64,000 nucleotides of DNA, taken from the NCBI GenBank assembly GCA_963666315.2, contig CAXXHG010000038.1, positions 94,015 to 158,014 on the forward strand, written 5' to 3'. Under the pieces are notes generated by a model that was given only the letters and a program-made list of their open reading frames with translations, did not search any database and was not told the origin of the DNA. The stretch comes from Candidatus Binatia bacterium (GTDB lineage Bacteria > Desulfobacterota > Binatia > Bin18). The position numbers and the translations under genes were made by a program. This document shows, one piece after another, positions 4,376 through 40,700 of the stretch; position 1 is the first letter of the stretch; every line of letters begins with the position of its first letter.

Positions 4376-4378
4376 CGG

Positions 4379-21951: not shown

Positions 21952-24207
21952 TCACGGATTCATCAGATTCTCAGCGTCGCGATGTTTAGCCGGTTCTGTC
22001 GGCAGAGACCCCAATTTTGACCGTCGTTCTTCTTCAAACGCTTGTTCCAGTAATCCTTTCAGAGACTCTGGATTCACCGCCTCCTGGGCTGCCTCCTTCA
22101 GCGCACTCCGATCAGCATAGGCCATAATATCTTTGATCTTCGATCCTAAGAGCGTTCTCAGTCGCTCGTCATAGGTGTCCTCTGCAATCAGACGATGGAC
22201 ATGCACGCGACGCAACTGACCAATACGCCGCGTTCTCGCGATGGCCTGCCATTCTGTCGTCGGCTTCGTCTGTGGCTCCATGATAACAACAACAGATGCG
22301 GCCTGGAGATTCAGACCAACCCCGCCGGCATTGATCTGAGAGACGAGGATCGCGTGCCCCGGCTCGTTAGTGAACTCCTCAACAGTCCGTTGCCGCTCAT
22401 TTGATGAAAGAGCGCCCGTAATCACGTAGCGCGTCCCACAGGTCCCTTGGACGGTTCGGACAATATCGAGATAGAAGGAGAACACTAGAACTTTCTCATT
22501 CGTTTCTTGATAATTCACGATGAGTTCGTCAAGCCGCTGCATTTTGCCGCTTTGTCCATCTCCACGTCCAATTGTGGCTGCACGCAAGGCATCGTGGTAG
22601 GTGCCTCCCATAAGGGCGTCCATATACGCGCCATGGTCCGTCGAGGTCAGGTCCACCCATTCATCTTCCTCAATCATTTCCGGTAGCTCCGGGAGAACAT
22701 CTTCCTGTTTGCGTCGCAGATAGACAGGCGCAATGGCCTTCCGAAAGCGCAGCGGTCCTAGCGTGCCGGCGTCGTGCGAGTCGGCCAGGCGCCGACCAAG
22801 TGATGGTTGAAGCATGGCAATCAACGCGATCATCTCCGACGGACGGTTCTCGATAGGCGTTCCGCTCATCAGCATGGCGTAGTCAGCCCATTTTACAATG
22901 CGCTGCGCCTGATGAGACCTGTTTGCTGCGGGATTCTTCACATAATGGCACTCGTCGATGACGGCCAGATCGACTTGCGGTGGCAGTTTGCAAGACGCCC
23001 GTGATAAGGCTCCGAGCGAGATGATGAGTACGTCAAATTTCATCATCTTCTCCGAAACCTCGCGGGGGTTGGCAATATCAACCGTGAGGGACGTGAGTCG
23101 TTCGATTTCGTGACGCCACTGTGCACAGACGGGAGCTGGCGCTACGACAATGGCGTTGAGACGCTTGCGTTCACGTTTCAGATGCGTCGCCACAGCAAGG
23201 GCTTCTATCGTCTTGCCCAAGCCCATCTCGTCACCAAGCAGCACACGCTCCTGCGCTAATGCGAACTTCGCACCAAACGCTTGATACCGTCTCAGCGAAA
23301 TCTCTTTGAAGTGCGGGTGTAAGGGAGTCGCTTCGATCCGTTCGACTAGATCATCGCTCTTGAGTCCGTGGACTTTGCCTGGGTGAAAGCGGTCAAGGAG
23401 TAGTTCTATGACCTGAGTCCGGCTTTCGGCATAGAGATCGGTGAGAGACGATTCTGCTCGTTTAGCGTCTTTGCTTTCCAGATCGGCCTTGAGCGCGCGG
23501 GCAGTCTCTCGCGTCTCATCTACGTTTGACTGGTTGCGAGCGGTGGATACGTGCTCTCGTATGTGTACCGGCTTTTGTCCAGCCAGACATCGAAGGAGCG
23601 CGCGGCGGTGCACCTTTTTCCAGGCGCGGTGCTCTTGTGGCAGAGCACGTTCTTGGGCAGCAATTTGCTCTTGAAACTCGTCATCACTGTCGAGGAGGGC
23701 CAGGGCCGTCGTGGCGACGTTCGTCTCTTCAGGGAGCAAATGGGCTCCTGGGATGGCTGTCCAGTGTTCCTCCCAATATTCGTCGCGGAGGCTGTCTTTC
23801 AGAGAAAGGAGATTGAACAGAGCGTCGCCGCGCAGACGCGGGATTGTCGGAACGCCTCGGTCGACGTCCGCGATTCGGCTGTACCCGTCTGACTCAAGCC
23901 GCTCCACCCCCTGTTTCCCCAGCCCATCGACTTTGAAATCACGGATACGGAGTTTACGCCATTCCCGTTCAAACCGCTCTGTCGCCAATCTCCGGTATGC
24001 TATATCGAGCCGATCTTGACGTGTACTGAACTCATTGGCGGCCCAGGCCATATCAGCTTGGCAGCTCGCCAGGGTCCGTTTCCAGTCCCTTATTTCCTTG
24101 CGCCAGATGAACAAGTAATAGCGTGCCAAGAGGCACGTGATCACGATGATGACAGCAGCTATGCCGGCCAGCTCAGTTGTCACGGCGGACTCCTGTGGTG
24201 GGATCAT
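21952..24207 (-). CDS. SNF2-family helicase with N-terminal transmembrane helix
   Basis: LAGIAAVIIVITCLLARYYLFIW; LGDEMGLGKT, DECH, SGTPIEN, GVGLNLQ, QAIARTRRIGQ. Confidence 0.88.
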   Translation of the reverse strand: MIPPQESAVTTELAGIAAVIIVITCLLARYYLFIWRKEIRDWKRTLASCQADMAWAANEFSTRQDRLDIAYRRLATERFEREWRKLRIRDFKVDGLGKQGVERLESDGYSRIADVDRGVPTIPRLRGDALFNLLSLKDSLRDEYWEEHWTAIPGAHLLPEETNVATTALALLDSDDEFQEQIAAQERALPQEHRAWKKVHRRALLRCLAGQKPVHIREHVSTARNQSNVDETRETARALKADLESKDAKRAESSLTDLYAESRTQVIELLLDRFHPGKVHGLKSDDLVERIEATPLHPHFKEISLRRYQAFGAKFALAQERVLLGDEMGLGKTIEALAVATHLKRERKRLNAIVVAPAPVCAQWRHEIERLTSLTVDIANPREVSEKMMKFDVLIISLGALSRASCKLPPQVDLAVIDECHYVKNPAANRSHQAQRIVKWADYAMLMSGTPIENRPSEMIALIAMLQPSLGRRLADSHDAGTLGPLRFRKAIAPVYLRRKQEDVLPELPEMIEEDEWVDLTSTDHGAYMDALMGGTYHDALRAATIGRGDGQSGKMQRLDELIVNYQETNEKVLVFSFYLDIVRTVQGTCGTRYVITGALSSNERQRTVEEFTNEPGHAILVSQINAGGVGLNLQAASVVVIMEPQTKPTTEWQAIARTRRIGQLRRVHVHRLIAEDTYDERLRTLLGSKIKDIMAYADRSALKEAAQEAVNPESLKGLLEQAFEEERRSKLGSLPTEPAKHRDAENLMNP

Positions 24208-24417: not shown

Positions 24418-24564
24418 TTGCCGGCAAACACCACGGAGATAGAAAAGCGGCTGTGGGATGCGGCGGATGAGCTACGCGCCAATTCCCGCCTCAAAGCATC
24501 GGAATACTCAGTGCCCGTCTTGGGTCTGATCTTCCTCAAGATCGACGTGAGGGAAGCCGCATGA
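24418..24564 (+). pseudogene. hsdM: N-terminal fragment of a second, different hsdM
   Basis: SD AGGAG, TTG start, [40 protein letters not shown]; stop overlaps the next ATG. Confidence 0.8.
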
Positions 24565-26816
24565 GCGAAATGTTATTCCAACAGGTCCAGTACAATCTGG
24601 AGGCGTTAGTCAATTTCATCGAGTTGGGACAGATTGGTCTGCCGAACATCCAGCGGCCCTTTGTCTGGAAGAATACCAAGGTACGCGACCTGTTCGATTC
24701 CATGTACCGAGGATATCCGGTCGGCTACCTGCTCCTGTGGCAAAACGGCTTTAGCGATGACATCCGCACCATCGGCACCGATCACAAGCAAACGGCTCCA
24801 CGGCTCCTGATCGTGGACGGCCAGCAACGCCTCACCTCTCTCTACGCCGTTGTCAAAGGTGTCCCGGTGCTCCGAGAGAACTACAGCACCGAAACGATTG
24901 CTATTGCCTTTAGTCCGCTGTTAGAGCGCTTCGAGGTGGCCGACGCCGCTATCCGGCGTGACAAGTTCTATATCCCGAATATTTCCGTCCTCTGGAGCCC
25001 CGATACCGACCTGTTCGACCTGGTCGATGACTATCTCGAAAACCTGTCGTCGAATCGCGAGGTCAGCGCAGAGGAACGCAAACACATCCGCAAGGTCATC
25101 CAGCGGCTCAGCAACTTGCTCACCTATCCGTTGACCGCGCTGGAGCTGTCTCCCAAGATTGACGACGAGCAAGTGGCGGAAGTTTTTGTTCGCATTAATA
25201 GTAAAGGGACCGCCCTCGTTGAGGCCGACTTTATCCTGACTTTGATGTCAGTCTTTTGGGATGATGGCCGAGCCGAATTGGAGACCTTCTGCCGCACGGC
25301 TCGCACGCCGACCGTCGGCGAGGCGTCCCCATTTAATCACTTTATCCACCCGGACCCGGATCAACTGCTGCGTGTCAACGTCGGTGTCGGATTCAAACGG
25401 GCGCGGCTCAAGTTCGTCTACTCCATCCTGCGGGGCAAAGACCTCGAAACCGGGCAGTTCAGTGCCGAGCGCCGGGACGCGCAATTTAAGATACTCAAAC
25501 AGGCGCAGACTCGTACCCTCAACCTCCAATACTGGCATGACTTCTTTAAGGCCATTGTCCAGGCGGGCTACAAGGGAGGCCGGCTCTTTACCTCACAGAA
25601 CAATCTGCTGTTCACCTACGTCATGTATCTGATCGGACGCACCGAATACGGCGTCGGTGAACGCACCTTACGGCAGGCCATCGCCAAATGGTTCTTCATG
25701 TGTAGCCTCACCGGGCGGTATACCCGCTCCCCCGAAAGCGACTTCGAGTTCGACTTAGCCCGGCTGCGTGAAATAAAAGACGGCGACGCCTTCATCACCA
25801 TGTTGCATCAGATTTGCGATACCACCCTGACCGGCGACTTCTGGACGCTCACGCTGCCGAACGAGCTGGCAACCTCCTCACCCAGGAGCCCCTCACTCTT
25901 CGCGTATTACGCCTCCCTCATCCTCCTAGACGCCAAAGCCTTGTTCTCCCCGCAACGAGTCGTGGACCTTATGGACCCCTCAGTGCACGCGCGCCGCAAT
26001 GCCATTGAGCGCCATCACCTGTTTCCGCTGGGCTATCTCAAAACCCTCGGCATTACCGATATCCGAGAAACCAACCAGATCGCCAATTACGCCATTACCG
26101 AATGGAATGACAACGTGGACATCAGCGACCAGCCGCCGGCAGTGTATCTGCCACAACTGATAGAGCAAGTGGACGTCAAAGAACTGGATCGCATGACCTA
26201 CTGGCACGCCCTCCCAGACGGATGGGAGAACATGAAGTACAGCGATTTCCTGACCCAGCGCCGGGAGCGCATGGCCCGTGTCATGGCCGACGCCTATAAG
26301 CGCCTGTCCGGCCCCAGCGAGGAAGAACGGCGCGGACAAGAGGTCTCCTTAGTCGATCTGATCGGAGACGGCGAAACGAGCCGGGTGGAGTTCAAAGCCA
26401 CCTTGCGGGTCAATCTGCACACCGGCCAAAAAGACCCACGCATGGAGCTGGCCATCCTCAAGACCGTCGCCGGCTTTCTCAACACCCAAGGCGGGACGCT
26501 GCTGATTGGGGTGGGCGATCACGGCAATCCGGTCGGCATCGAGGCAGACGGCTTTGCCAATGAAGATAAGATGAACCTGCATCTCATTCACCTGCTGCGG
26601 GATCGCATCGGGACCGCCAAACTCATGTATGTGCATCCCCGCTTTGAAGACCATGAGGACGAGCGGGTGCTCGCCGTCGATTGCTGGCCGGCCAAGTCGC
26701 CGGTGTTTGTCAAAGACGGCAATACCGAACACTTCTACATTCGCACCGGCACCTCGACCTCGGAGCTGACCTCCAGTCAGACCCACGACTTCATTACACA
26801 ACACTTCGACTCTTAG
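24561..26816 (+). CDS. GmrSD-like (DUF262 + HNH-type DUF1524) protein fused to a C-terminal Schlafen/AlbA_2 domain
   Basis: [27 protein letters not shown]; ERHHLFP..NQIAN; [34 protein letters not shown]. Confidence 0.88.
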
Positions 26817-26952
26817 CTGACAATTATGATGGCTAGCGACTACTCCGAAGATGTCCTTGTTGGATAGCCGACAATCGCCCTGTTGCCGAACTCGGCTACA
26901 AGACCGCCAATTGTCTCTACGGGCAATCGATGCGTAAGGAACCCACATAGCC

Positions 26953-29352
26953 ATGGCCATCAAGAAATCCGACCTCTACTCATCGCTCTGGTCGAGCTGC
27001 GACGAGCTGCGCGGCGGCATGGATGCGAGCCAGTACAAAGACTACGTGCTCGTGCTGCTGTTTGTAAAATACGTCAGCGATAAATATGCCGGCCAGCCCT
27101 ACGCGCCGATTTCTATCCCTGACGGCGCGAGTTTTACGGACATGATGGCCCTCAAGGGGTCGAGCGACATCGGCGACCAGATCAACAAGAAGATCCTAGG
27201 CCCCTTGGCCAACGCCAACGAGCTGTCCGACATGCCGGACTTCAACGACGCCACCAAGCTCGGCACCGGCAAAGAGATGGTGGATCGACTCACCAATCTG
27301 ATCGCCATCTTCGAGAATCCCGCACTCGACTTCTCCAAGAACCGGGCGGATGACGATGACATCCTGGGCGACGCCTACGAATACCTGATGCGCCACTTCG
27401 CCACCGAGAGTGGCAAGAGCAAAGGGCAGTTCTACACCCCGGCTGAAGTGAGTCGTATTATCGCCCAACTGCTTGGCATCCGTGACGCCGTCACCACTAA
27501 CGATACAACTGTCTATGACCCGACCTGTGGTTCAGGCTCACTACTCTTGAAAGTGGGCGAACAGGCGACCGCACAGGTCACACTCTACGGGCAAGAAAAA
27601 GATGCGGCCACTTCCGGCCTCGCCCGTATGAACATGATCTTGCATGATAACCCCACGGCGCTGATCCGGCAGGGCAACACGTTGACCAATCCGCTGTTTA
27701 CAGAAAATGGGCGGCTCAAGACCTTTGACTATGTGATTGCCAATCCGCCCTTTAGCGACAAACGCTGGAGTACCGGGCTCGACCCGCTCAACGACCCCCA
27801 TGAGCGCTTTAGTCATTTCGGGGTACCGCCGGCCAAGCAAGGCGACTATGCCTATCTCCTGCATATTGTGCGCTCACTGAAGAGCACCGGCACCGGCGTG
27901 TGTGTGCTCCCGCACGGGGTCTTGTTTCGCGGCAACGTCGAGGCCGACAGCCGCCGGAATCTGATCCGTCGGGGCTACATCAAAGGCATCGTTGGCCTAC
28001 CGGCCAATCTCTTCTATGGCACGGGTATCCCGGCCTGTCTCATTGTCCTCGATAAAGCGCGCGCGGCGGCCCGCACAGGCATCTTCATGATCGACGCCTC
28101 CAAGGGTTTCATGAAAGACGGCAACAAGAACCGCCTGCGAGAAATGGACCTCCATCGGATTGTCGATGTCTTCACCAAACAGCGCGAAGAGCCCAAGTAT
28201 TCCCGCCTGGTGCCTTTTGAGGAAATAGAGAAAAACGAGTTCAACCTGAACATCCCGCGCTACATCGACAGCCAGGAACCTGAAGACATTCAGGACATTG
28301 AGGGCCACCTACGCGGCGGGATGCCGGTAGCCGATGTGGATGCTCTGGAATCATATTGGTCGGTCTGCCCACACCTACGCGGGAGTCTCTTCAACGAGAT
28401 GCGTCCCGGATACCTGAGCCTGGCCGTCGACACGTCAGCTATCAAGCCGGTCATCTATGAACACGCGGAGTTCGCCGGTTTCATCGCCCGGATGGAGGAT
28501 CATTTTAATCAATGGCGCAATCAGGCCGTAGCGGGGCTCAAGTCCCTGGCGCAGGGCTGTCATCCCAAAACTATTATTACCGAGTTGAGCGAGGGCCTGC
28601 TCAACCACTACGCCGGCATGCCGCTCATAGGCAACTATGATGTCTATCAGCACCTCATGGATTATTGGGCCGCAATCATGCAGGACGACTGCTATCTGAT
28701 CGCCGCCGATGGGTGGAAGGCCGAGCCAGAGCGCATCATCGAGACAGATAAAAAAGGCAAAGAGAAAGACAAGGGCTGGGCCTGCGACCTGGTGCCCAAG
28801 GCCCTTATTGTGGCCCGCTACTTTGCGGAGGAGCAGGCGGCCCTCACCGCGTTGGAGGCTGAACTGGAAAGTATCAGCGCGCAAATGGCCGAACAGGAAG
28901 AAGAGCACGGCGGAGAGGAGGGTCTTTTCGCGGAGCTGGAGAAGGTAAACAAGGCCAACGTCACCGCCCGGCTGAAGGATATCAAACGTGATCCCGATGC
29001 CAAGGACGAAGCCAAGGCGCTGAACGACTGGCTCATGCTCTGCAACGAGGAGGCAGCAAAAAAGAAAGTCATCAAAGAGGTCGATGCCGCCCTCGATGCC
29101 AAAGCGCTGGCCAAGTACCCGATGCTCAGTGAGGATGAGGTCAAGACGTTGGTGGTGGAAGACAAATGGCTTACGACCCTTGCCGGCGCTCTGCACGGCG
29201 AGATGGACCGCATCAGCCAATCTTTGACACAGCGTGTGAAAGAGCTGGCCGAACGCTATGAAACCCCGCTGCCCCAAGTCGGAAGCCAGGCTGCTGAGCT
29301 GGAGCAGAAAGTGAATTGCCACCTGGAGAAGATGGGTTTCTCATGGAACTGA
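26953..29352 (+). CDS. hsdM: type I R-M methyltransferase subunit
   Basis: LWSSCDELRGGMDASQYKDY, GQFYTP, YDPTCGSG, ANPPF. Confidence 0.96.
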   Translation: MAIKKSDLYSSLWSSCDELRGGMDASQYKDYVLVLLFVKYVSDKYAGQPYAPISIPDGASFTDMMALKGSSDIGDQINKKILGPLANANELSDMPDFNDATKLGTGKEMVDRLTNLIAIFENPALDFSKNRADDDDILGDAYEYLMRHFATESGKSKGQFYTPAEVSRIIAQLLGIRDAVTTNDTTVYDPTCGSGSLLLKVGEQATAQVTLYGQEKDAATSGLARMNMILHDNPTALIRQGNTLTNPLFTENGRLKTFDYVIANPPFSDKRWSTGLDPLNDPHERFSHFGVPPAKQGDYAYLLHIVRSLKSTGTGVCVLPHGVLFRGNVEADSRRNLIRRGYIKGIVGLPANLFYGTGIPACLIVLDKARAAARTGIFMIDASKGFMKDGNKNRLREMDLHRIVDVFTKQREEPKYSRLVPFEEIEKNEFNLNIPRYIDSQEPEDIQDIEGHLRGGMPVADVDALESYWSVCPHLRGSLFNEMRPGYLSLAVDTSAIKPVIYEHAEFAGFIARMEDHFNQWRNQAVAGLKSLAQGCHPKTIITELSEGLLNHYAGMPLIGNYDVYQHLMDYWAAIMQDDCYLIAADGWKAEPERIIETDKKGKEKDKGWACDLVPKALIVARYFAEEQAALTALEAELESISAQMAEQEEEHGGEEGLFAELEKVNKANVTARLKDIKRDPDAKDEAKALNDWLMLCNEEAAKKKVIKEVDAALDAKALAKYPMLSEDEVKTLVVEDKWLTTLAGALHGEMDRISQSLTQRVKELAERYETPLPQVGSQAAELEQKVNCHLEKMGFSWN

Positions 29353-30624
29353 GACCTGGTTACAAGCAGACTGAGGTGGGGGCGATCCCGGAGGATTGGG
29401 AAGTTGGCTCTTTAGAATTTTTGACTGACCCGAGACGGCCCATCTCCTACGGTATCGTTCAGACAGGGCCGACTGTCCCGAATGGGGTGAGATGCCTGCG
29501 CGTCTTGGATGTTAATGATGGCCGAATAAGCAAGGACAAGCTCATAACGACAAGCAAAGAAATCAGCAGCGCTTACAAAAGAACCATCCTAAAAGCTGGC
29601 GACTTGGTTATGCCGCTGCGCGGCAAAGTGGGAGACGTAGCAATCGTTGATCAGGACCTGGCTGGCTCCAATCTCACTAGGGGCATCGCGCTAATTTCGA
29701 TTCGGTCAGATTGGAGCGCCTCCTACAGTCAGCAATTTATTTCGTCGCCTGCCACGCGAAACAGGCTAGAGCACTCCTTAAACGGATCGGCTTTACAGGA
29801 GATTCCAATAGCAACCTTACGCGCCTTCAAAATTGCCCTCCCCCCCACCAAAGCCGAACAAGAAGCCATTGCCCAGGCGCTCTCAGATGCGGATGCCCTC
29901 ATCGCATCCCTAGAGCACCCTCATCACCAAAAAACGCCGGATCAAACAAGGTGCCATGCAGGAATTGCTCACGGGGAAGAAGCGACTGCCGGGGTTCGAG
30001 ACTAATCCGGGTTACAAGCAGACCGAAATCGGAAGGATTCCAGAGGATTGGGAGGTTCACGGGCTGGGTCAACTCTGTAATTGTTTCTCTGGTGGAACGC
30101 CAAGTACTTCGAATCCTAGCTATTACGGCGGAAACATTCCATGGATTACTTCAAGTGATTTGAACAAGGAACGAATAACAGAAGTCGAAGGCCGCATTAC
30201 TGATGCTGGCCTCGCAAATTCTTCAGCCAAGATCACCAACGAGAATTCATTGCTTCTAGCCCTTTATGGTGCAACTGCTGGAGTAAGTGCCATAACTGAG
30301 ATACGGGCAGCGATAAACCAAGCTGTATTAGTGATTATTCCAGTTAGACTAAATGTCGATTACCTTTTTCAGTATCTACGACTGAAAAAGGACTCATACA
30401 TCAAGACATATACCCAAGGTGGGCAGCCAAACTTTAGCGGCGAGATCGTTAAGTCATTTTTAATTCCGATCCCCCCCACCAAGGCCGAACAAACCGCCAT
30501 CGCCGGCATCCTCACCGACATGGACACCGAAATCACCGCCCTAGAATCAAAACTGACCAAGACCCGCCAGCTCAAACAGGGCATGATGCACAACCTGCTC
30601 GCCGGGAGGATTCGCCTGGTATGA
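29343..30624 (+). pseudogene. hsdS: type I specificity subunit, copy 1, +1 frameshift in the central conserved region (29918-29920)
   Basis: GYKQTEVGAIPEDW-TRD-PPTKAEQEAIA; GAGCACCCTCATC versus GAGCAACTCATC in copy 2; span is 3n+1; second half is ORF 29956-30624. Confidence 0.9.
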
Positions 30625-30668
30625 CCACCATCGGCACACCCGAACGAGTCACCCAGGACCGCGTCTGA
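30621..30668 (+). pseudogene. duplicated first 15 codons of hsdR (mini-ORF MTTIGTPERVTQDRV)
   Basis: Matches 32067-32111 except one base; ends in TGA. Confidence 0.9.
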
Positions 30669-30672
30669 AACC

Positions 30673-30744
30673 ATGAGCAAGGTTGCTGAGCTGGAGAAGA
30701 AAGTGAACGGCCACTTGGAGCAGATGGGATACTCATGGACATGA
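30673..30744 (+). pseudogene. diverged copy of the hsdM 3' end (mini-ORF MSKVAELEKKVNGHLEQMGYSWT)
   Basis: Compare HsdM end SQAAELEQKVNCHLEKMGFSWN; overlaps hsdS2 start by 10 nt exactly as hsdM overlaps hsdS1. Confidence 0.9.
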
Positions 30745-32070
30745 TGAGCCGTTCTTCATGTCCGAAAGGGTACAAGCAGACCGAGGTAGGGGTGATCCCG
30801 GAGGATTGGGAGGTTGTCTGTTTATCTGACGTATTGGATGGGTTTCAGAATGGTTACGCTTTTTCTGCCCAAGCATATACTTCTTCGGGAGTGCCTATCG
30901 TAACAATGGCGCAAATCAGCCTCGATGGCTCGTTTCAGTTTGATGAGGCTATTGTAAATAACTGGGACGATGAAGAGGCTAAGAAACTCAAGGCTTTCTT
31001 CGTAAATGATGGCGATGTCATTGTTTCCATGACTGACGTAACACCCTCCAAGAATCTGATTGGCAGAATGGCTTTGACCAAGCTCGATAAGCCAGCTCTT
31101 CTAAATCAACGAGTGGGTTTACTACGGCTAAACAGGGATAGAATCCTTCCTGGGTATCTCGTCCCTTTATCCAATCAGAGTGCATGGCGAAGCTATTGCA
31201 AAGGAGCCGCTACCTTAGGAGTCCAGGCAAATATTGGAACGAAGGAGCTGAAAAATGGACTAATTCCTCTCCCCCCCACCATCGCCGAACAAGAAGCCAT
31301 CGCCGAGGCGCTCTCCGATGCGGATACCCTCATCGAATCCGTTGAGCAACTCATCACCAAAAAACGCCAGATCAAACAAGGGGCCATGCAGGAATTGCTC
31401 ACTAGCAAGAAGCGCCTGCCGGGGTTTGAAATCAAATCCGGCACCAAGCAGACCGAGGTCGGGGTGATTCCAAACGATTGGGAAGCAAAGCAAATTCAAG
31501 AAGTTTGTGATTTCATCGTGCCAGGAAGAAACAGACCCCGAGTTTTCAACGGGGATATTCCCTGGATTACGACTCCCGATTTAGAAGATGGCAGAAATGT
31601 ACATGAGTCCCGTTTGTCGCTCAGAGTATCGATAAGCGAGGCCAAGGCCGTCGGATCGAAGGTTGTTCCAGAAGGCTCAGTGTTGATGTCGTGCGTTGGA
31701 GAATTGGGGATCGTGGCGCTGGCTGGACGTGACATTGTCATCAATCAACAACTTCATGCTTTCTTACCGACGGGAGCGATCAACCCAGTGTTCCTAGTTT
31801 ACGCTATCAAGACCCAGGCATCTTATATTGAAAGCGTCGCAACGAAGACGGCTTTACCTTATCTGAATAAAGAAAACTGCAACTCAATTCCAATTCCACT
31901 GCCTCCTCTTGCCGAACAAGAAGCCATAGCCGACGCGCTCTCCGACATGGACACGGAAATCGACGCCATACAATCAAAACTGACCAAGGCCCGCCAACTC
32001 AAACAAGGCCCGCCAACTCAAACAAGGCATGACGCACAACCTGCTGACCGGGAGGATTCGCCTGGTATGA
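30735..32070 (+). CDS. hsdS: type I specificity subunit, copy 2 (different TRDs); a 19-bp duplication fuses it in frame to hsdR
   Basis: Two TRDs with conserved regions; CAAGGCCCGCCAACTCAAA x2 at 31985-32022; removing one copy restores the stop at 32068-32070. Confidence 0.88.
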
Positions 32071-34676
32071 CCACCATCGGCACTCCCGAACGAGTCACCC
32101 AGGACCGCGTCATCACACTCTTCCGGGAAGAGCTGGGCTACGACTATCTCGGCGACTGGCAAGATCGTGCCGACAACAGCAACATCGAAGAAGACCAGCT
32201 CACCGCCTATCTAAAAAAGACCGGCTACAGCGCAGAGCAAATTGCCAGGGCGCTGCACGCGCTTCGCACTGAAGCCAACAACCCGAACCGCAGCCTCTAC
32301 GACAACAACAAAACGGTCTATGGCCTACTCCGCTACGGCGTGCCCGTGAAAGCGGCGGCTGGCGAAAACACCGAAACCGTCAAACTCATCAATTGGGACG
32401 AGCCGGCAGCAAACGACTTCGCCCTTGCCCAAGAGGTTACCCTCAAAGGCAACCACGAACGCCGGCCTGACCTGGTGCTGTATATCAATGGCATCGCCGT
32501 GGGCGTCATCGAACTCAAGAACAGCCGCGTCTCCATTGGCGATGGTATTCGCCAGAACATCTCCAACCAGCAAAAAGAGTTTAACCAATGGTTCTTCGGT
32601 ACCGTGCAATTCGTCTTTGCCGGCAATGACAGCGAGGGACTCAAATACGGCACCATTGGCACCCCGGAGAAATACTACCTTCAGTGGAAAGAAGACGAGG
32701 CCGACAATACCCGCTTCACGCTCGACAAATATCTACTCAAGATGTGCGCCAAGGACCGGCTCATCGAATTGATACACGACTTCGTGCTCTTTGACGGCGG
32801 GATCAAGAAACTGCCGCGCGTGCACCAGTATTTCGCCGTGAAGGCCGCCCAGCAGCGGGTCGATGAAGGGAAAGGCGGCATCATCTGGCATACCCAGGGC
32901 AGCGGCAAAAGCATCGTCATGGTGCTGCTGGCTAAATGGATGCTGGAGCACCAGCCCAACGCGCGGGTGGCCATCGTTACCGACCGCGACGATCTGGACA
33001 AACAGATCGAGAGTGTTTTCTCCGACGCCGGCGAGGACATCTACCGCACCCGCAATGGTAGCGACCTCATGACCCGGCTCGGCCACGCCACGCCACGACT
33101 GATCTGCTCGCTGGTCCATAAGTTCGGCAAAAAGGAAGTCGATAATTTCGAGCAGTTCATCACAGAACTTGAGGCCCAGCCCTGCCATACCGTCGGCGAT
33201 ATTTTCGTGTTCGTGGACGAGTGCCACCGCACGCAGAGCGGCAAGCTGCACCGCACCATGAAGGCAATCATGCCACACGCGGCGTTTATCGGCTTCACCG
33301 GCACGCCGCTGCTCAAGAAAGACCAGCAGACCAGCCTGGAAGTCTTTGGCCGCTATATCCATACCTACAAGTTCACCGAAGGGGTCGAGGACAAGGTGAT
33401 CCTCGATCTGGTCTATGAGGCACGTGACATCGACCAGCGTATCGGTTCCGAAGACAACATCGACGCCTGGTTCGAGGCCAAGACCAGGGGTCTCAACGAC
33501 TGGCAAAAAGGGGTGCTGCGCGAGCAGTGGGGCACGATGCAGCAGGTGCTCAGTTCCCGCTCTCGTATGGATAAAGTGGTGCAGAACATCGAGCTTGATT
33601 TTGCGGTGAAGCCCCGGCTGGCCAATCAACGCGGCACGGCCATGCTCATCGCCGCCAGCATCTACGAAGCCTGCAAATACTTCGCGCTGTTCCAGCGCTC
33701 AACGCTCAAGGACAATTGCGCCGTGATCACGTCCTACAGCCCCCTGACACAAGACATCACCCTGGAGGACACCGGCGCCAATACCGAGACGGACAAGGAG
33801 TTCATTTACCATACCTACACCGAGCTACTGAAAAATATCGACGCGCGCCCGGGCAAGACCAAGACCGAGACCTACGAAGAGGATGCGAAAGACCTCTTCA
33901 AAAAGCAGCCGGCCAATATGAAGCTCCTGATAGTGGTAGACAAGCTGCTCACCGGCTTCGACGCGCCGAGCTGTACCTATCTCTATATCGACAAATCCAT
34001 GCAGGACCACGGCTTGTTCCAGGCGATCTGCCGCACCAACCGGCTTGACGGCGACGACAAAGAGTTCGGCTATATCGTGGACTACAAGGACCTCTTCAAA
34101 AAGGTTGAGAAGGCCATCGCCGTCTACACCGCCGAGCTGGATCAGAGTGATGGCGGCCCGGCTCCCGAGATTCTCCTGCACGACCGTTTGACCAAAGGCC
34201 GTGAGCGGCTCGAAAACGCGCGGGAAGCTATTGCTCTGTTATGCGAGCCCGTAGAGCCCCCGAAAGGGGAACTCGAGTATATTCACTATTTTTGCGGCAA
34301 CACCGAGCTGCCCGCTGATCTGGCGGCGCGCGAACCGCAGCGGGTGGCCTTGTACAAAGCCACCGTGTTGTTGGTCCGGGCCTTCGCCAATATTGCCGAC
34401 GAACTGGAGGCGGCGGGGTACAGCCCGACCGAGACGAACCAGATCAAGCAGGACCTCGACCGCTCTCTGAAGCTCCGCGAAGTCATTCGCAAGGCAAGCG
34501 GCGAGACTATTGACCTCAAAGCCTACGAGGCCGACATGCGCCACTTAATATCCCCACTCCTCATGGCGGACCGGCAGCCGATTCAGCTCATCCCGCCGTT
34601 GCTGCCAGTGCGGAAGGAAGCGATCCAGTACGGCGGTGAACCGACTATTGTGACTCGGCTCAATCAGGTGTCCTAA
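32067..34676 (+). CDS. hsdR: type I restriction subunit, apparently C-terminally truncated near 34550
   Basis: RPDLVLYING..IELK, WHTQGSGKS, DECHR, GFTGTP, LLTGFD; family-like sequence stops at AYEADMRHLI. Confidence 0.9.
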   Translation: MTTIGTPERVTQDRVITLFREELGYDYLGDWQDRADNSNIEEDQLTAYLKKTGYSAEQIARALHALRTEANNPNRSLYDNNKTVYGLLRYGVPVKAAAGENTETVKLINWDEPAANDFALAQEVTLKGNHERRPDLVLYINGIAVGVIELKNSRVSIGDGIRQNISNQQKEFNQWFFGTVQFVFAGNDSEGLKYGTIGTPEKYYLQWKEDEADNTRFTLDKYLLKMCAKDRLIELIHDFVLFDGGIKKLPRVHQYFAVKAAQQRVDEGKGGIIWHTQGSGKSIVMVLLAKWMLEHQPNARVAIVTDRDDLDKQIESVFSDAGEDIYRTRNGSDLMTRLGHATPRLICSLVHKFGKKEVDNFEQFITELEAQPCHTVGDIFVFVDECHRTQSGKLHRTMKAIMPHAAFIGFTGTPLLKKDQQTSLEVFGRYIHTYKFTEGVEDKVILDLVYEARDIDQRIGSEDNIDAWFEAKTRGLNDWQKGVLREQWGTMQQVLSSRSRMDKVVQNIELDFAVKPRLANQRGTAMLIAASIYEACKYFALFQRSTLKDNCAVITSYSPLTQDITLEDTGANTETDKEFIYHTYTELLKNIDARPGKTKTETYEEDAKDLFKKQPANMKLLIVVDKLLTGFDAPSCTYLYIDKSMQDHGLFQAICRTNRLDGDDKEFGYIVDYKDLFKKVEKAIAVYTAELDQSDGGPAPEILLHDRLTKGRERLENAREAIALLCEPVEPPKGELEYIHYFCGNTELPADLAAREPQRVALYKATVLLVRAFANIADELEAAGYSPTETNQIKQDLDRSLKLREVIRKASGETIDLKAYEADMRHLISPLLMADRQPIQLIPPLLPVRKEAIQYGGEPTIVTRLNQVS

Positions 34677-34703
34677 TTCGTGGACAATAATATACTCGAG
34701 GCA
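34545..34703 (-). pseudogene. inverted C-terminal fragment of a YgjP/DUF45 (M48-like) zinc metallohydrolase gene
   Basis: Minus-strand translation CLEYIIVHELGHLIEPSHNSRFTAVLDRFLPHWQQRRDELNRLPVRHEEWGY* (HExxH..H); no start codon. Confidence 0.85.
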
Positions 34704-34819
34704 CGCGCGCGTGCTGCACGTTTGGCCTACGCCAATAATAAGCGCTTGAATCCCCAGCCAGCAACGCCTATGAGTTAAGGTCTTCCAAGAATGAACGATG
34801 TAAGCCTGAGCTGTTCCGC

Positions 34820-37800
34820 ATGGATAATAGATTCTTCGAACGCCCGATCTTGAACTCTCCTTACGAGTATCCCGCGCAATATTGGGAGCTTGATGGGGAT
34901 GGGCAGCCGACTCATCAGATAATGGAAGGCCGCCGCCCGGCTAAATTTGTTACTCCGATACCGAAACCAAGAAAACGTAAAGGAGCCTCGGACCAACAGC
35001 AGTTTGTCTTTGATGAAGGCCAAGGACTTTCATCCGCAGAGCAGCAATATGAACGGACGGCGACAATTATCAATGCGATTCGTCGTCAGGTGGATCGGTG
35101 GCGAAATCGACCCAATGTAGCCGACTGGCATGTGACCCCCGAGACTGCTCGTTTGCTACAACACTGGCGGCACCATGAATTTAGTAATATCCGGCCATTT
35201 TTCTGTCAGTTGGAAGCGGTTGAAACCGTCATCTGGTTGACTGAGGTCGCGCCCACGGCTGGCAAGACGGGCAAAGATTTCCTTGATCATCTTCTAAGAG
35301 CAAGTGCTGACGCCAATCCAGACTTGATCCGGTTGGCCCTCAAGTTGGCTACCGGTGCGGGTAAAACTACAGTCATGGCTATGCTGATTGCTTGGCAGAC
35401 TATCAACGCCAAGCGCAGCCCCATGAGCAAGAGATTCACACGTGGCTTTCTAGTCGTTACGCCAGGTCTGACTATCCGTGACCGGCTGCGTGTCCTGCAA
35501 CCGAACGATCCGGATAGTTACTTCCGAGACCGTGAACTCGTACCCAATGAGATGCTCGGCGATTTGAAAGGCGCCAAGATTGTTATCACCAACTACCACG
35601 CATTTAAGCTGCGCGAGCGGATGGAACTATCGAAAGGCGGGCGCTCATTGCTGCAAGGCCGGGGTCAGGCGTTGAGCACCCTAGAAACGGAAGGACAGAT
35701 GCTCCAGCGTGTCGTGCCCGATCTGATGGGCATGAAACACATCATAGTCCTGAACGACGAAGCACATCACTGCTATCGTCAGAAGCTGGGAGAAGAGCAA
35801 GAAGGAGACCTGAAGGGAGACGAAAAGAAAGAAGCCGCAAAGCACAAGGAAGCTGCGCGAGTGTGGATCTCGGGTCTTGAAGCGATTAACCGGAAACTCG
35901 GTGTGACCCGAGTGATTGACCTGTCTGCCACGCCTTTCTTTCTCAGTGGGTCTGGCTACGTGGAAGGTACACTGTTCCCTTGGACGGTGAACGACTTCTC
36001 GCTCATGGATGCAATCGAATGCGGCATCGTTAAGCTGCCACGGGTTCCAGTGGCCGATAACATTCCGGGTGGGGAAATGCCAAAGTTTCGCAACCTGTGG
36101 GAATATATTCGCGCCCGGATGCCCAAGAAGGGTCGGGGCAAGGGTAAGACCCTCGATCCGCTCAGCCTTCCTGTTCAGCTCCAGACCGCTCTGGAGGCAC
36201 TCTACGGACATTACAAGAAAACATACGAACTGTGGGAAGAAAGTGGTATCCGCGTTCCTCCTTGCTTCATCGTAGTTTGCAACAATACCTCTACTTCCAA
36301 GCTGGTCTATGACTATATCTCGGGCTTCACTAGAGAGAACGAAGACGGTTCCAGCACACTGGAGAATGGACGTTTGGCATTGTTTCGGAATTTTGACGAA
36401 CACGGCAATCCATTGGCGCGTCCTCGCACGTTGTTGATCGACAGTGAGCAGCTAGAATCCGGCGATGCGCTGGACACCAACTTTCGCAATGTGGCGAGTG
36501 AAGAGATCGAACGTTTCCGGCGCGAAATCGCCGAGCGCACGGGCGACCGGAGTCAGGCCGAGAATATTACCGACCAAGAGCTGCTCCGCGAGGTTATGAA
36601 CACAGTCGGCAAGCAGGACCGCCTCGGCGAGTCGATTCGCTGCGTTGTGTCAGTTTCCATGCTCACCGAAGGCTGGGATGCAAATACGGTTACACATGTT
36701 TTGGGCGTCCGGGCCTTCGGTACCCAGCTTTTGTGCGAGCAGGTGATTGGCCGTGCATTACGCCGCCAGTCGTATGACCTCAATGAAGAAGGCCGGTTCA
36801 ACCCTGAGTACGCAGACGTACTCGGGATTCCGTTTGACTTCGCTGCTAAGCCCGTTGTCGCCCCACCCCAACCACCACGTGAGACTATTCGGGTAAGTGC
36901 GGTTCGTCCGGACCGCGACCATCTTGAAATCGAATTTCCACGAGTGCAAGGCTATCGAGTCGAACTGCCCGAAGAGAGGCTCACGGCAGAGTTCAATGAC
37001 GACTCGATCCTGGAGCTGACGCCGGAGCTTGTCGGTCCTTCCATCACGCGTAACGCCGCAATTATTGGTGAAGATATAGACCTCAGTCTGAAGCACCTGA
37101 AAGATAGGCGGCCCTCCAGGGTCCTGTACAACGTTACTACGCGGTTGCTTTACACAAAATGGCGCGACCCTGGAGAAGACCCTAAACTCCACCTATTTGG
37201 ACAACTGAAACGTATTACTAAGCAATGGTTCGACAACTGCTTAACCTGCAAAGGCGGCACCTACCCCGCCCAGCTCATGTACCAAGAATTGGCTGACATG
37301 GCCTGCGAGCGCATAAATGCCGGTATTACTCGCGCCTTGGTTGGCACTCGACCTGTCAAAGTTCTACTCGATCCGTACAACCCTACTGACTCCACAATGC
37401 ATGTGGACTTCACCACGTCAAAAAGAGGTCGATGGGAAACGGATGCACGACGTTGCCATATCAACTGGGTTATCCTCGACAGCGACTGGGAGGCCGAATT
37501 CTGCCGCGTCGCGGAAGCGCATTCAGCGGTCCAGACATACGTGAAGAATCACAACCTCGGCCTCGAAATCCCCTACCGTTATGGATCGACGATGCGCACT
37601 TACATTCCGGACTTCATCGTGGTGCTGAACGATGGCCATGACGATCCATTGCATCTGATCGTTGAGATCAAGGGTTATCGGCGTGAAGACGCCAAGGAAA
37701 AGAAATCCACCATGGAAACCTACTGGGTGCCAGGGGTGAATAACCATGGGCAGTATGGTCGCTGGGCATTTGCCGAGTTTACCGAGGTCTATCAGATGGA

Positions 37801-37879
37801 GGCCGACTTTGAGGCCAAGGTCGAGAACGAATTCAACAAGATGGTAGACCAAATCATTAACCCCCAACTCCCGGTTTGA
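34820..37879 (+). CDS. res: type III-like restriction endonuclease/helicase (BPTD_3080-like Res)
   Basis: PILNSPYEYP, LKLATGAGKT, NDEAHHCY, SMLTEGWD, EQVIGRALRR, C-terminal YIPDF..IVEIKG. Confidence 0.88.
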   Translation: MDNRFFERPILNSPYEYPAQYWELDGDGQPTHQIMEGRRPAKFVTPIPKPRKRKGASDQQQFVFDEGQGLSSAEQQYERTATIINAIRRQVDRWRNRPNVADWHVTPETARLLQHWRHHEFSNIRPFFCQLEAVETVIWLTEVAPTAGKTGKDFLDHLLRASADANPDLIRLALKLATGAGKTTVMAMLIAWQTINAKRSPMSKRFTRGFLVVTPGLTIRDRLRVLQPNDPDSYFRDRELVPNEMLGDLKGAKIVITNYHAFKLRERMELSKGGRSLLQGRGQALSTLETEGQMLQRVVPDLMGMKHIIVLNDEAHHCYRQKLGEEQEGDLKGDEKKEAAKHKEAARVWISGLEAINRKLGVTRVIDLSATPFFLSGSGYVEGTLFPWTVNDFSLMDAIECGIVKLPRVPVADNIPGGEMPKFRNLWEYIRARMPKKGRGKGKTLDPLSLPVQLQTALEALYGHYKKTYELWEESGIRVPPCFIVVCNNTSTSKLVYDYISGFTRENEDGSSTLENGRLALFRNFDEHGNPLARPRTLLIDSEQLESGDALDTNFRNVASEEIERFRREIAERTGDRSQAENITDQELLREVMNTVGKQDRLGESIRCVVSVSMLTEGWDANTVTHVLGVRAFGTQLLCEQVIGRALRRQSYDLNEEGRFNPEYADVLGIPFDFAAKPVVAPPQPPRETIRVSAVRPDRDHLEIEFPRVQGYRVELPEERLTAEFNDDSILELTPELVGPSITRNAAIIGEDIDLSLKHLKDRRPSRVLYNVTTRLLYTKWRDPGEDPKLHLFGQLKRITKQWFDNCLTCKGGTYPAQLMYQELADMACERINAGITRALVGTRPVKVLLDPYNPTDSTMHVDFTTSKRGRWETDARRCHINWVILDSDWEAEFCRVAEAHSAVQTYVKNHNLGLEIPYRYGSTMRTYIPDFIVVLNDGHDDPLHLIVEIKGYRREDAKEKKSTMETYWVPGVNNHGQYGRWAFAEFTEVYQMEADFEAKVENEFNKMVDQIINPQLPV

Positions 37880-37883
37880 AACT

Positions 37884-40700
37884 ATGGCAAAGAGAGCAAC
37901 CAAAAAGAAGAAGACGGTCGAAACGCTCAAGCACCAAGACGCGTCGCGCAAGAACATCCCCACCGCCGAGTTCCAGTCCGTCATGCGCAAAGACGAGCAA
38001 AGCCCTATTCAAGTTGCCTATGAGCGGCGCAACCGCGAGCTCGACCCACAACTTGTCTGGCGAGGTAAGGACGAACAGAACTGGTCAGACTTGGTGGTCC
38101 AGGCACCGCCACTCTATATCCAAGAGAAAGTCCACCCGAAGGTGCTTATTGACGACCTACTCCGCCACACTAAGGCGGAGTACAAAGCCGCCGAATCCCA
38201 GTTCGACCTGTTCGCTGACTTCAACGGTCTGCCTGACGAGGCGCACTCAACCGAATTCTATCAACACGATGCTAACTGGACCAACCGTATGATCCTGGGT
38301 GACGGCCTGCAAGTCATGGCGTCCCTAGCCGAACGCGAGGGCCTGCGTGGCAAAGTCCAGTGCATCTATATCGACCCGCCCTACGGCATCAAGTTCAACT
38401 CTAACTTCCAGTGGTCTACCACCAGCCGGGAGGTAAAGGACGGCAACGCCGAGCACATTACGCGTGATCCTGAGCAGGTAAAAGCATTTCGGGATACGTG
38501 GCGAGATGGAATTCATTCGTATCTGACCTACCTACGTGACCGACTCACCGTCGCGCGTGATCTTCTTTCCGATACTGGATCGATTTTCGTTCAGATGGGC
38601 GATGAGAATGTCCATAGGGTTCGTGCTTTGATGGACGAAATTTTCGGGGACGTAAACTTCCTGAGCTTGATTACAATTCAGACGACGACCGGATTCGAGG
38701 CCCGCTATGTTGGTAACATGTCAGACTTTGTTCTCTGGTACGCGAAGGACAAAGATCGCGGTAAAGCAAGACCTTCATTCTATCGTAGGGAGTTCGAGCT
38801 TGGTCAAGGAAATGCCAGGTGGCTTATGTTCGACGACTTCACCTATCGTGGCGTTACCGCGAAAGAGAAGCGGAATGAAGAGACCATTCCGTCAGGCGCG
38901 AAGCCGTACCAACCCGACAACATCATTTCGCAGGGTCGTGCTAAGGATCGCCAGCCTTTCACGTTTCGGAGCGAATCATATGACACGTGGGAAAAGAACT
39001 CGCACTGGAAGGCATCTTACCCGAAAGGGATGCAAAGGCTCGGAAAAGCAAACCGGATTCACATCGCTGAGAATTCGATTCGATACGTTCGGTATCACGA
39101 CGACTTTGAACTCGGAGTCCACGGAAACATTTGGACTGATACAGGAACGGGCAATTTCACTGACGAGAAGCTCTACGTCGTCCAAACGAACACGAAAGTC
39201 GTTGAACGGTGCATACTAATGGCGAGCGACCCGGGCGACTTGGTTCTCGATCCAACCTGCGGTGCAGGCACGACCGCTTACGTCGCTGAACAGTGGGGCC
39301 GTCGTTGGATCACCGTTGATACGTCTCGGGTCGCCTTGGCATTGGCGCGTGCTCGCATCATGGCCGCTCGCTATGCGTATTATCTGCTGGCCGATAGTCG
39401 AGAGGCGCAACTCAAAGAAGCTGAAGTCACCCGTTTGGCTCCTTCCGAAGCGCCAACGCACTGTAATATTCGACACGGGTTTGTGTACGAACGCGTGCCA
39501 CACATCACACTTAAATCTATCGCTAACAATGCGGAGATTGACGTGATCTGGGAGAAGTTTCAGGAAACGCTTGAACGGCTAGGCGAGAAACTGAATCGCG
39601 ATTTAGGGAGAGCGAAACAGCCGTGGGAAGAGTGGCAAATCCCTCGTGAGGCTAGCGAAGACTGGCCGAAGAAAGCGCAGAAACTCCATGCAGAGTGGTG
39701 GGAGCAGCGGATTGCTCGGCAGAAGGAGATCGACGGGTCTATCGCTGCCAAGGCCGACTCTGAATACCTGTACGACAAACCCTATATTGACAATAAAAAG
39801 GTTCGCGTCGCCGGGCCGTTCACCGTCGAGAGCCTGTCCCCGCACCGCGTATTTGTCGTGGATGAGAACGATGAGCTAATCGGCGGCGTCGCAGAGCCGC
39901 AAGCCAGTTACTGAGAGGAGCAGGACTTCGCCCAGATGATATTAGAAAACCTCAAGACCGCCGGCGTGCAACAGGCTCACAAGGAAGACAAGATCAATTT
40001 CACGTCGATTACACCCTGGCCGGGAGAGCTGATCTGCGCTGAAGGACGCTACATCGAAGGTGATGAAGAAGCAGGCATCGAGAAACGTGCAGCGATTTTT
40101 ATCGGTCCGGAGTTTGGCACGGTCTCTCGTCACGACTTAGTAGAAGCTGCCCGCGAAGCTGGAGACGCGGACTTCGACGCATTGATCACCTGCGCCTTTA
40201 ACTACGACGCCCATTCATCGGAGTTCAACAAGCTCGGACGTATCCCCGTGCTCAAGGCACGCATGAATGCCGATCTGCACATGGCCGATGATCTGAAGAA
40301 TACCGGCAAGGGCAATCTATTCGTCATATTCGGCGAACCGGATATTGATCTCCAGGATGCTGAAGATGGGCAGATCCAAGTGAAGATCAACGGCGTAGAC
40401 GTATTCCATCCGAACACTGGTGAAGTCCGTAGCGACACTGCGGACGGGATTGCGTGCTGGTTCATCGACACCGACTACAACGAAGCAAGCTTCTTTGTTC
40501 GCCATGCCTATTTCCTTGGTGCGAACGACCCATACAAATCTCTCAAAACCACTCTCAAGGCTGAGATCAACGAAGACACTTGGGCCACGCTCAATAGTGA
40601 TACGTCCCGACCGTTTGATAAACCCATGTTTGGTCGCATTGCGGTAAAAGTGATTAATCATCTTGGAGATGAAGTGATGAAGGTGTTCCGGGTGGATTAG
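37884..40700 (+). pseudogene. mod: type III-like DNA methyltransferase (Mod) split by an in-frame TGA at 39912-39914
   Basis: YIDPPYG, LDPTCGAGTT; ORFs 37884-39914 and 39936-40700 share a frame (ASY*EEQDFAQMILENL); ends RIAVKVINHLGDEVMKV. Confidence 0.88.

Follow-up and report, generated by a model that had tools for sequence, protein, structure and literature searches.

Tandem hsdS genes separated by relics of hsdR and hsdM: a recombination scar in a decaying Type I restriction-modification operon

Introduction

How does a Type I restriction-modification operon come to carry two co-oriented hsdS genes with the start of hsdR and the end of hsdM lying between them, and does such an array serve to switch DNA specificity? 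The question is raised by an operon in the genome of Candidatus Binatia bacterium (GTDB lineage Bacteria; Desulfobacterota; Binatia; Bin18; GenBank assembly GCA_963666315.2), located in contig CAXXHG010000038.1, from which the stretch of 64,000 nucleotides (nt) at positions 94,015 to 158,014 of the forward strand, here called the window, was analysed. The operon spans 26953–34676 on the + strand (coordinates are those of the window unless another locus is named), and the gene order is hsdM, hsdS1, 45 nt of the hsdR head, 10 nt, a diverged hsdM tail of 69 nt, hsdS2 and hsdR. A first-pass annotation, made from the letters alone, had reported this order, had interpreted it as the footprint of a circular specificity cassette and had proposed a recombinase-free route for switching specificity. 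The order was confirmed by the sequence and by repeat alignments, and the junction at which hsdR-head and hsdM-tail sequence meet is genuine, representing both a novel joint and a recombination scar. Active recombinase-free switching, on the other hand, is unsupported.

Structure of the tandem hsdS locus

The segment joining the two hsdS genes consists of three pieces, all on the + strand. The first, at 30621–30668, is a 5′ relic of hsdR made up of 15 codons (MTTIGTPERVTQDRV) and then a TGA at 30666–30668; like the real hsdR, it starts with an ATG overlapping the preceding hsdS stop, here that of hsdS1. This copy of the hsdR head (30621–30665) is identical at 44 of 45 nt to 32067–32111, and a search for the hsdR-head pattern with up to 3 mismatches returned 2 places in the window compared with 0 in 100 shuffles. 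The second piece is the novel joint proper, 10 nt (TGAAACCATG) at 30666–30675 that are assignable to neither hsdR nor hsdM; its limits were set by alignment, with hsdR homology extending to 30665 and ungapped hsdM homology beginning at 30676. The third, at 30676–30744, is a 3′ relic of hsdM (hsdM tail′) sharing 58 of 69 nt (84 %) with 29284–29352, the last 69 nt of hsdM. The lengths given in the first-pass annotation, 45 bp for the hsdR head and approximately 70 bp for the diverged hsdM tail, were thus borne out. The hsdM tail′ sits inside a mini open reading frame (ORF) of 23 codons (30673–30744), the stop of which overlaps the hsdS2 start region, and its translation (SKVAELEKKVNGHLEQMGYSWT, ending at the stop) matches the HsdM tails of relatives at 52–62 %.

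Direct repeats lie on either side of cassette 2, each extending across the boundary between the end of hsdS and the start of hsdR. The two copies (family D5, 108 nt, 94 % identity, spacing 1446) lie at 30558–30665 and 32004–32111 on the + strand, and each consists of the hsdS C-terminal conserved region and the hsdR head.

The hsdM gene (26953–29352, + strand) is intact and encodes 799 aa with the domains PF02384 N6_Mtase (E 8e-99) and PF12161 HsdM_N (E 2e-12), residues 1–798 aligning to relatives with 75 % identity. HsdM proteins of the same family share 55–81 % amino acid (aa) identity across phyla that are far apart, including archaea (Methanolobus, Methanosarcinales, Argoarchaeum and Micrarchaeota), and identities of this order over such distances point to wide horizontal spread. 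The hsdS1 gene (29343–30624, + strand) starts at an ATG at 29343 that overlaps the hsdM stop and ends with the TGA at 30622–30624. It includes two target recognition domains (TRDs), TRD1 at ~29406–29837 and TRD2 at ~30058–30468, and Methylase_S (PF01420) was found in both of its halves (E 2e-10 and 4e-26). The hsdS2 gene (30735–32070, + strand) starts at an ATG at 30735 and includes two Methylase_S PF01420 stretches (E 1e-38), with TRD3 at ~30816–31268 and TRD4 at ~31488–31898. The four TRDs share only 17–24 % aa identity in pairwise comparisons and are unrelated, and every hsdS part lies on the + strand in direct orientation, both as reported in the first-pass annotation. A conserved 'PPT/PPL' motif comes after each TRD, and in three of these four a run of seven C nucleotides lies within the hsdS frame (29850–29856, 30471–30477 and 31271–31277); these are potential slippage sites, and no length variant was seen among the contigs listed.

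Passage from hsdS1 to hsdS2 is by a relay of small ORFs, as the hsdR relic stops at the joint and the mini-ORF containing the hsdM tail′ starts four nt later. Each cassette retains its native upstream translation-start context, and the overlap between hsdM tail′ and hsdS2 is arranged in the same way as that between the real hsdM and hsdS1. Because each cassette has its own start context and the relay connects them, co-expression of two specificity subunits would be plausible while the array was young.

Support for the arrangement in other contigs

Could the array be a chimera, created when the assembler joined two strain alleles of one locus? The source genome is a draft in 47 contigs and is 92 % complete, the runs come from mixed communities with other related hsdS sequences, and Logan contigs break at a node of 24 nt that is common to both cassettes (30608–30631 = 32054–32077), all of which speak for such an error. 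Part of the stretch was present in 12 runs, 4 of which included at least half of the sampled words. The contigs compared, which are Logan contigs and not raw reads, were those of X8 and X12 (study P7) and X9 and X10 (study P8); X8, X9 and X10 each include at least half of the words and X12 a share of 0.32. As X8 includes 0.98 of the words it may be the source sample, and hence is not independent.

Contigs from X12 (30512–30772), X8 (30608–32014) and X9 (30608–30934) span the joint with 0 other letters, and one from X10 (30608–31301) does so with 2. The joint is therefore bridged by contigs from 4 runs and 2 studies and is not an artefact of one assembly, the objection that the first-pass annotation had itself foreseen. 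The X12 contig begins in hsdS1-specific sequence, crosses the shared node and continues via the joint into hsdS2. Moreover, a joint made of the hsdR head, 10 nt and hsdM tail′ is foreign to normal hsdM–hsdS and hsdS–hsdR loci. An assembly chimera is largely refuted, and we give it almost no weight.

The mean depths of the three X8 pieces (5.4, 6.7 and 6.9) look equal but are not copy numbers. Neither a join between the hsdS1 end and the hsdR body nor a closed circle was found among the contigs listed at the organism's likeness, a negative that weighs neither for nor against them, as contigs are prone to lose rare variants and each of them breaks at the shared node. Other listed 'joints' (e.g. 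29267>30771, depth 99.7) were rejected, as they stem from different organisms of greater abundance that align at the likeness threshold of 85 %.

Probable origin of the tandem array

When the two cassettes were compared, the identity outside the hsdM tails was 50/57 (88 %) in the N-terminal conserved region, 76/87 (87 %) and 111/134 (83 %) in the central conserved region, and 60/74 (81 %) and 38/44 (86 %) in the C-terminal conserved region. The exception is formed by the 64 nt immediately upstream of the joint, made up of the C-terminal conserved end and the hsdR head, which are identical at 63 of 64 positions to the true boundary, and the longest exact stretches shared by the cassettes, 36 and 27 nt, both lie within these 64 nt, followed by stretches of 20, 19 and 18 nt. 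With identities of 81–88 % in the conserved regions and unrelated TRDs, the cassettes represent different alleles that are joined at one near-identical patch.

The reading that we prefer, and consider rather likely, is that the locus is a fossil of additive recombination in which a segment of approximately 1.45 kb, consisting of the end of hsdM′, hsdS′ and the start of hsdR′, was added. The donor would be an allele that had diverged within this Type I family, and the segment supplied would have begun ~70–80 nt before the end of hsdM′, included hsdS′ and ended 45 nt into hsdR′. One illegitimate join would have generated the hsdR-head/hsdM-tail junction at 30665–30676, and one homologous exchange would have occurred at the boundary between the hsdS end and the hsdR start, the sole near-identical stretch of the cassettes. 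The simplest physical route would be circularisation of the incoming fragment followed by a single crossover of the RecA type.

The direct repeats around cassette 2 and the novel joint are features of a single-crossover (Campbell-type) event, though other routes produce them too. There is an experimental precedent in conjugation of Escherichia coli, where 56 of 60 clones included a duplication of 109–950 bp of the homologous locus that was ascribed to single crossover of a circle (PMC3240628). The earlier proposal of circle integration consequently stands in part, as the joint, the flanking repeats and this precedent agree with it, but linear-fragment or duplication routes would give the same scar. 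In one of these, a linear fragment homologous at one end would have joined illegitimately at the other, inside the recipient hsdR head. Homology-facilitated illegitimate recombination (HFIR) in the strict sense is expected to delete recipient DNA beside the homologous anchor, a difference that serves in PMC3240628 to separate the two outcomes, whereas here recipient DNA is duplicated, not deleted, with two copies of the hsdR head. Either cassette could be the newcomer.

Alternatively, a plain tandem duplication may have been followed by allelic replacement. Sister chromosomes would first have exchanged illegitimately, the hsdR head of one with the hsdM tail of the other, which would have doubled the resident hsdM tail, hsdS and hsdR head. 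Later, homologous recombination of the ordinary kind would have brought in a foreign hsd allele in place of the 3′ part of hsdM and of copy 1 as far as ~30601, sparing the last 64 nt, and in that case hsdM tail′ and hsdS2 would represent the original resident sequences. This history would account for 63 identical positions in the last 64 nt before the joint as opposed to 81–88 % everywhere to the left of them, and foreign alleles are plentiful, given the 55–81 % aa identity of hsdM-family alleles across many phyla; higher-depth contigs of other related hsdS conserved regions are also present in the same runs. However, two rare events are needed, and an unstable perfect duplication of 1.4 kb must have persisted between them. 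Furthermore, the present hsdM tail is nearer to those of same-genus relatives (77–79 % aa) than is tail′ (58–60 %), which is unexpected if tail′ is the older resident, though this objection is softened by the horizontal movement of the family. On balance, we consider this alternative unlikely.

Several points nevertheless weigh against the addition of a foreign cassette as we prefer to read it. A donor allele was not found in the searches reported below, and the foreign origin is drawn from divergence alone. The patch with 63 of 64 identical positions could instead have been left unaltered after a simple tandem duplication. There is a weak microhomology at the joint, GAcCGC in hsdR and GAaCGC in hsdM, a few nt apart, and this reading does not account for the 10 nt at the joint. 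A Ku homologue (PF02735) was not found in the 92 %-complete genome, leaving the end-joining activity needed to form a circle without a candidate. The link between the hsdS2 end and the hsdR body is bridged by no listed contig, passes the shared node and rests on the original assembly. Finally, hsdS1 may truly be frameshifted, as its intactness depends on one contig with a mean word depth of 5.4.

State of the operon and prospects for switching

The first-pass annotation had described two hsdS genes followed by hsdR. Both hsdS genes are complete in extent, but three lesions had been overlooked, namely an extra C in hsdS1, a 19-bp duplication in hsdS2 and the truncation of hsdR.

In the window, hsdS1 is split into two ORFs (29343–30005 and 29956–30624) by one extra C in the CCC run at 29918–29920, and the frames on either side adjoin within one codon. 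The extra C at 29918 is missing from the sole listed contig over the site, the X8 contig at 28900–30631 referred to above. Hence, hsdS1 may be intact and the frameshift in the window an assembly error or a polymorphism.

A perfect tandem duplication of 19 bp is located in the C-terminal conserved region of hsdS2 (GGCCCGCCAACTCAAACAA twice, at 31988–32006 and 32007–32025, + strand), reported by Tandem Repeats Finder (TRF) as a repeat at 31985–32028 with a period of 19, 2.3 copies and 100 % matches. It brings hsdS2 into the frame of hsdR, creating a single ORF of 1313 aa (30735–34676), and leaves the ancestral hsdS2 stop, TGA at 32068–32070, out of frame. The duplication is covered without gaps by contigs from X9 (31352–32077) and X10 (31284–32077), which are two runs of study P8. 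In three genomes (G314, G225 and G330), the blastn pieces overlap on the subject at the duplication point, as expected of a single copy.

The hsdR gene (32067–34676, + strand, ATG at 32067) encodes HSDR_N, SWI2_SNF2 and T1R_D3-like domains and is truncated. Homology to relatives ends at about codon 828 (about 34545–34550) and 41 unrelated codons follow before the stop; tblastn matches to relatives, the ORFs of which are 1041–1051 aa long, stop at residue 835–843, so that overall the homology ends at residue 828–843 of 869. The protein is therefore without its last ~210 residues and is not the full-length HsdR of a Type I system. The C-terminal part of HsdR is needed for assembly with the methylase, and, using L017 as the only query, it was not found elsewhere in the 92 %-complete genome. 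At the point where homology ends there is an inverted 3′ fragment of a YgjP-like metallopeptidase gene (34548–34703, − strand, 52 codons, 156 nt), identified by tblastn of the 239-aa protein from L017 and corresponding to residues 188–239 of that protein (60 % identity, E 1e-19). In relatives, the YgjP-like gene (PF01863) is located directly downstream of hsdR on the same strand. The hsdR end and the inverted fragment thus represent a second rearrangement, either an inversion or a deletion.

Taken together, the frameshift in hsdS2 and its fusion to hsdR, and the truncation of hsdR, mark an operon that appears to be degenerating. Only hsdM and, probably, hsdS1 look intact. As judged from the genes, the locus would at most encode a methyltransferase composed of M and S1, not a specificity switch, and the operon is probably restriction-dead.

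Could the array nonetheless act, or have acted, as a device for gaining and losing specificities without a recombinase, with RecA excising a circle of 1,446 bp or generating hybrid TRD1–TRD4 genes? Efficient RecA exchange needs about 25–30 nt of exact identity. The direct repeats include exact runs of 36 and 27 nt, and exchange in this boundary repeat would, in principle, delete cassette 2 (1,446 bp) and restore hsdS1–hsdR. At the pneumococcal tvr locus, long direct repeats have been described as still allowing excision, though inefficiently, when TvrR was absent and in a recA− background (PMC6265443), and boundary duplications recur in the genus, as set out below. However, the boundary repeat is the only one with exact runs that are near sufficient, and the hybrid TRD1–TRD4 route would have to use the central conserved region, in which the longest exact run is 20 nt. 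Every deletion product that includes the hsdS2 3′ end would retain the frameshifting duplication, and with hsdR truncated probably no restriction remains that could take on another specificity. Moreover, the same arrangement together with the 19-bp duplication is present in runs of two studies, and the architecture was not seen in any of the 70 related loci or the 25 genomes searched. With identities of 81–88 % outside the last 64 nt and short exact runs, a frameshifted hsdS2 and a truncated hsdR, the recombinase-free switch proposed in the first-pass annotation is not supported, and we regard an active device of this kind as quite improbable.

In the Pfam scan of the window's ORFs described below, no recombinase gene was found within about 13 kb; the first-pass annotation had likewise noted no invertase nearby. 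The sole Phage_integrase hit (14699–15487) is 11.5 kb from hsdM, and an invertase or recombinase gene within ~2 kb of the hsd genes, as used to classify loci in PMC7672463, is thus absent. Only one inverted repeat, 23 nt long with 83 % identity, was found in 29000–32400, and there are no inverted repeats shared between opposed hsdS copies such as characterise invertons.

Related loci and the search for a donor

The relatives examined were 401 genomes of the class, including the window's own, the 80 best HsdM-family loci from genome contigs, and 10 loci of relatives that were fetched. Cassette 2 DNA matches 26 of the 401 genomes, again including its own. The central conserved region is present exactly once in 18 of the 25 other matching genomes and twice only in the window's genome, and a tandem hsdS pair was found in none of the 25. 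Among the 80 loci, the hsdM tail was recovered in 70 and the hsdR head in 56; none of the 70 includes a second hsdM tail, and no hsdS span among the loci exceeded ~1.5 kb. Hence the junction, which the first-pass annotation had suggested should be sought between the tandem hsdS genes of other genomes, did not recur in 70 related loci and 25 genomes. This screen detected the window's own tail relic but missed the hsdR relic of 15 codons, whereas a more sensitive DNA self-probe of both boundaries recovered both relics in the window. With the self-probe, no convincing boundary duplicate was seen in the 80 loci when matches were judged by coordinates and a match in L025 was set apart.

Self-probe matches in L048, L063, L073, L087, L091 and L116 were rejected, as by their probe coordinates they fall in hsdS conserved regions that are alike within the gene, and one in L081 was rejected as a palindromic intergenic repeat. 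In L081, from a metagenome-assembled genome (MAG) of Caldilineaceae, a palindromic element of ~37 nt with the core CCCTCCCCAAGGGGAGGG is found after hsdM, after hsdS and before hsdR. Its copies (5851–5880, 10404–10440, 11865–11911 and 12402–12438 of that locus) look like a repetitive extragenic palindromic (REP) sequence or a terminator hairpin at gene boundaries. In L087 (10397–11782 of that locus; Acidobacteriota MAG), hsdS is broken up among several frames and hsdR is reduced to its first ~35 codons, with unrelated genes after it; it is another decayed locus of the same family.

For the donor of cassette 2, a DNA search of the 400 further genomes of the class gave matches to conserved regions alone. 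A protein search with hsdS2 against metagenome contigs returned 80 loci, none of them close, the best sharing one TRD at 71 % aa identity, and the exact 45-nt hsdR-head pattern had 0 matches in metagenome contigs. An intragenomic donor was rejected, as the only other hsdS belongs to a second Type I system on contig C6 that is of a different family (HsdM 30 % identical) and has no DNA match. Within these results, TRD4, which occupies the C-terminal position in hsdS2, is 71 % identical at the aa level to TRDs in the N-terminal position of the metagenome hsdS genes in L120 (265–900, 80 % nt identity) and L122 (1605–2207), an example of a TRD moving between positions.

Analogous scars at the hsdR boundary were present in two of the 10 loci fetched, both from the window's genus. 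In G007 (locus L022), an hsdR head of 321 nt is duplicated with 92 % identity around a PIN and Phd cassette. At 3497–7479 of this locus, hsdM is cut at residue ~592 and adjoins half of an hsdS gene, after which come a membrane ORF, a KwaB-like gene, an hsdR head ORF of 109 codons, the PIN and Phd genes and a full hsdR. In G027 (locus L023, 5354–6250, minus strand), a direct duplication of 194 nt with 93 % identity surrounds an inserted helix-turn-helix (HTH) gene. The duplicated unit consists of the 3′ end of a PIN gene and the first 17 nt of hsdR, and as a result the HTH ORF begins with the first codons of hsdR. Additive insertion with duplication of the hsdR 5′ boundary has therefore occurred at least three times in the genus, with hsdS as cargo only in the window.

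A more far-reaching possibility, which we regard as very doubtful, is that in this lineage the boundary between the hsdS end and the hsdR start is a recombinase-free landing pad, at which small circles bearing the boundary would integrate and excise by host homologous recombination. Were this so, such circles could carry an entire specificity gene, a regulator or a toxin-antitoxin pair, and specificity genes as well as accessory defence cassettes would be traded between Type I loci like integron cassettes with no integrase, the window, G007 and G027 representing three snapshots of the process.

Genomic context

A Pfam scan was performed on 43 of the 44 non-overlapping ORFs of at least 100 aa in the window, the one excluded being cut by the window start. 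The operon is part of a large defence island that extends from 1067 to 42770 in the window. Upstream of hsdM, it includes HEPN_Swt1/DUF499 and DUF1156 proteins (1067–7258), an SNF2 helicase with NOV_C (8977–12537), the small Phage_integrase-family ORF already mentioned (14699–15487), a DUF2779 protein (20218–21780), a further SNF2 helicase (21952–24207) and a protein with GmrSD_N and Schlafen AlbA_2 (24561–26816). Downstream are a ResIII/endonuclease protein (34820–37879) paired with an N6_N4 methylase (37884–39914), and a UvrD-like helicase (40701–42770). In a promoter and terminator scan of 26500–35000, the number of sites was not above that in shuffles and none was at the joint.

Comparison with known systems

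Loci with more than one hsdS gene are common, with 3292 recorded in REBASE, 827 of them with an invertase (PMC7672463), and the two REBASE surveys considered here (PMC7672463, PMC7394358) sought inverted repeats only. Inverting loci such as SpnD39III resemble the locus described here in having more than one hsdS gene, different TRDs and shared conserved regions, but they rely on inverted repeats and have one silent hsdS that is only partial, and an invertase gene usually lies within 2 kb (PMC7394358, PMC7672463). In the window, both hsdS genes are full length and co-oriented and there is no invertase.

The tvr locus (SpnIV) of Streptococcus pneumoniae shares with the window co-oriented hsdS sequences and direct repeats (PMC6265443), and the statement in the first-pass annotation that hsdS shufflons normally use inverted repeats and a recombinase does not fit it, as tvr combines direct repeats with circular intermediates. 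In tvr, a circular intermediate of ~1.0–1.5 kb can leave and re-enter the Type I locus. The locus has a tyrosine recombinase (TvrR), a Phd-Doc pair and defined repeats, with TRD segments being moved (PMC6265443), and its circles are described as depending mainly on the recombinase encoded by the locus (PMC6265443). Here, direct repeats do bound an hsdS segment, but the interval from hsdM to hsdR has neither a tyrosine recombinase nor Phd-Doc. It is the gene boundary that serves as the repeat, the unit involved is an entire hsdS gene together with relics of both neighbours, and a circle was not seen among the listed contigs.

Known routes to hsdS diversification are TRD swapping, shuffling by an invertase and, at one pneumococcal locus, excision and reintegration by a recombinase. 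The present locus represents a clean scar of a fourth outcome, the addition of a second complete hsdS gene with neighbour-gene relics marking the ends of the donor segment. Such relics in the spacer would offer a simple criterion for asking how multi-hsdS loci arose. A joint of the hsdR head with the hsdM tail between tandem hsdS genes was not found described in the literature covered, subscription journals lying outside that coverage. For this organism, the practical message is modest, as the operon is at most a methyltransferase and probably restriction-dead.

The known tandem repeat in an hsdS spacer is 12 bp long and in frame. Like the 19-bp unit in hsdS2, it is a short duplication in a conserved helix-coding region, but it alters the length of the spacer and hence the specificity, whereas the 19-bp copy shifts the frame and removes the hsdS2 stop.

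The closest mechanistic analogues are the single-crossover duplications (PMC3240628) and additive displacement arrays (PMC5361080). The former likewise have direct homologous copies around the insert (109–950 bp compared with 108 nt here) and an illegitimate joint, but were generated in an experimental plasmid/lacZ system (PMC3240628), whereas the window is a natural locus in which the event is inferred and old. In the additive arrays of type VI secretion system (T6SS) effector-immunity, Rhs and contact-dependent inhibition (CDI) loci, a module enters beside an anchor gene and the old module is kept, leaving tandem diverged modules with fragments of conserved genes between them, which has been explained by HFIR (PMC5361080). 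The displaced copies there are orphan immunity genes or toxin tips (PMC5361080), while in the window the modules encode DNA-specificity subunits, and each flanking gene, hsdM as well as hsdR, has left a relic. The locus is thus a well-preserved recombination scar in a decaying operon, and a variant of both multi-hsdS loci and additive arrays.

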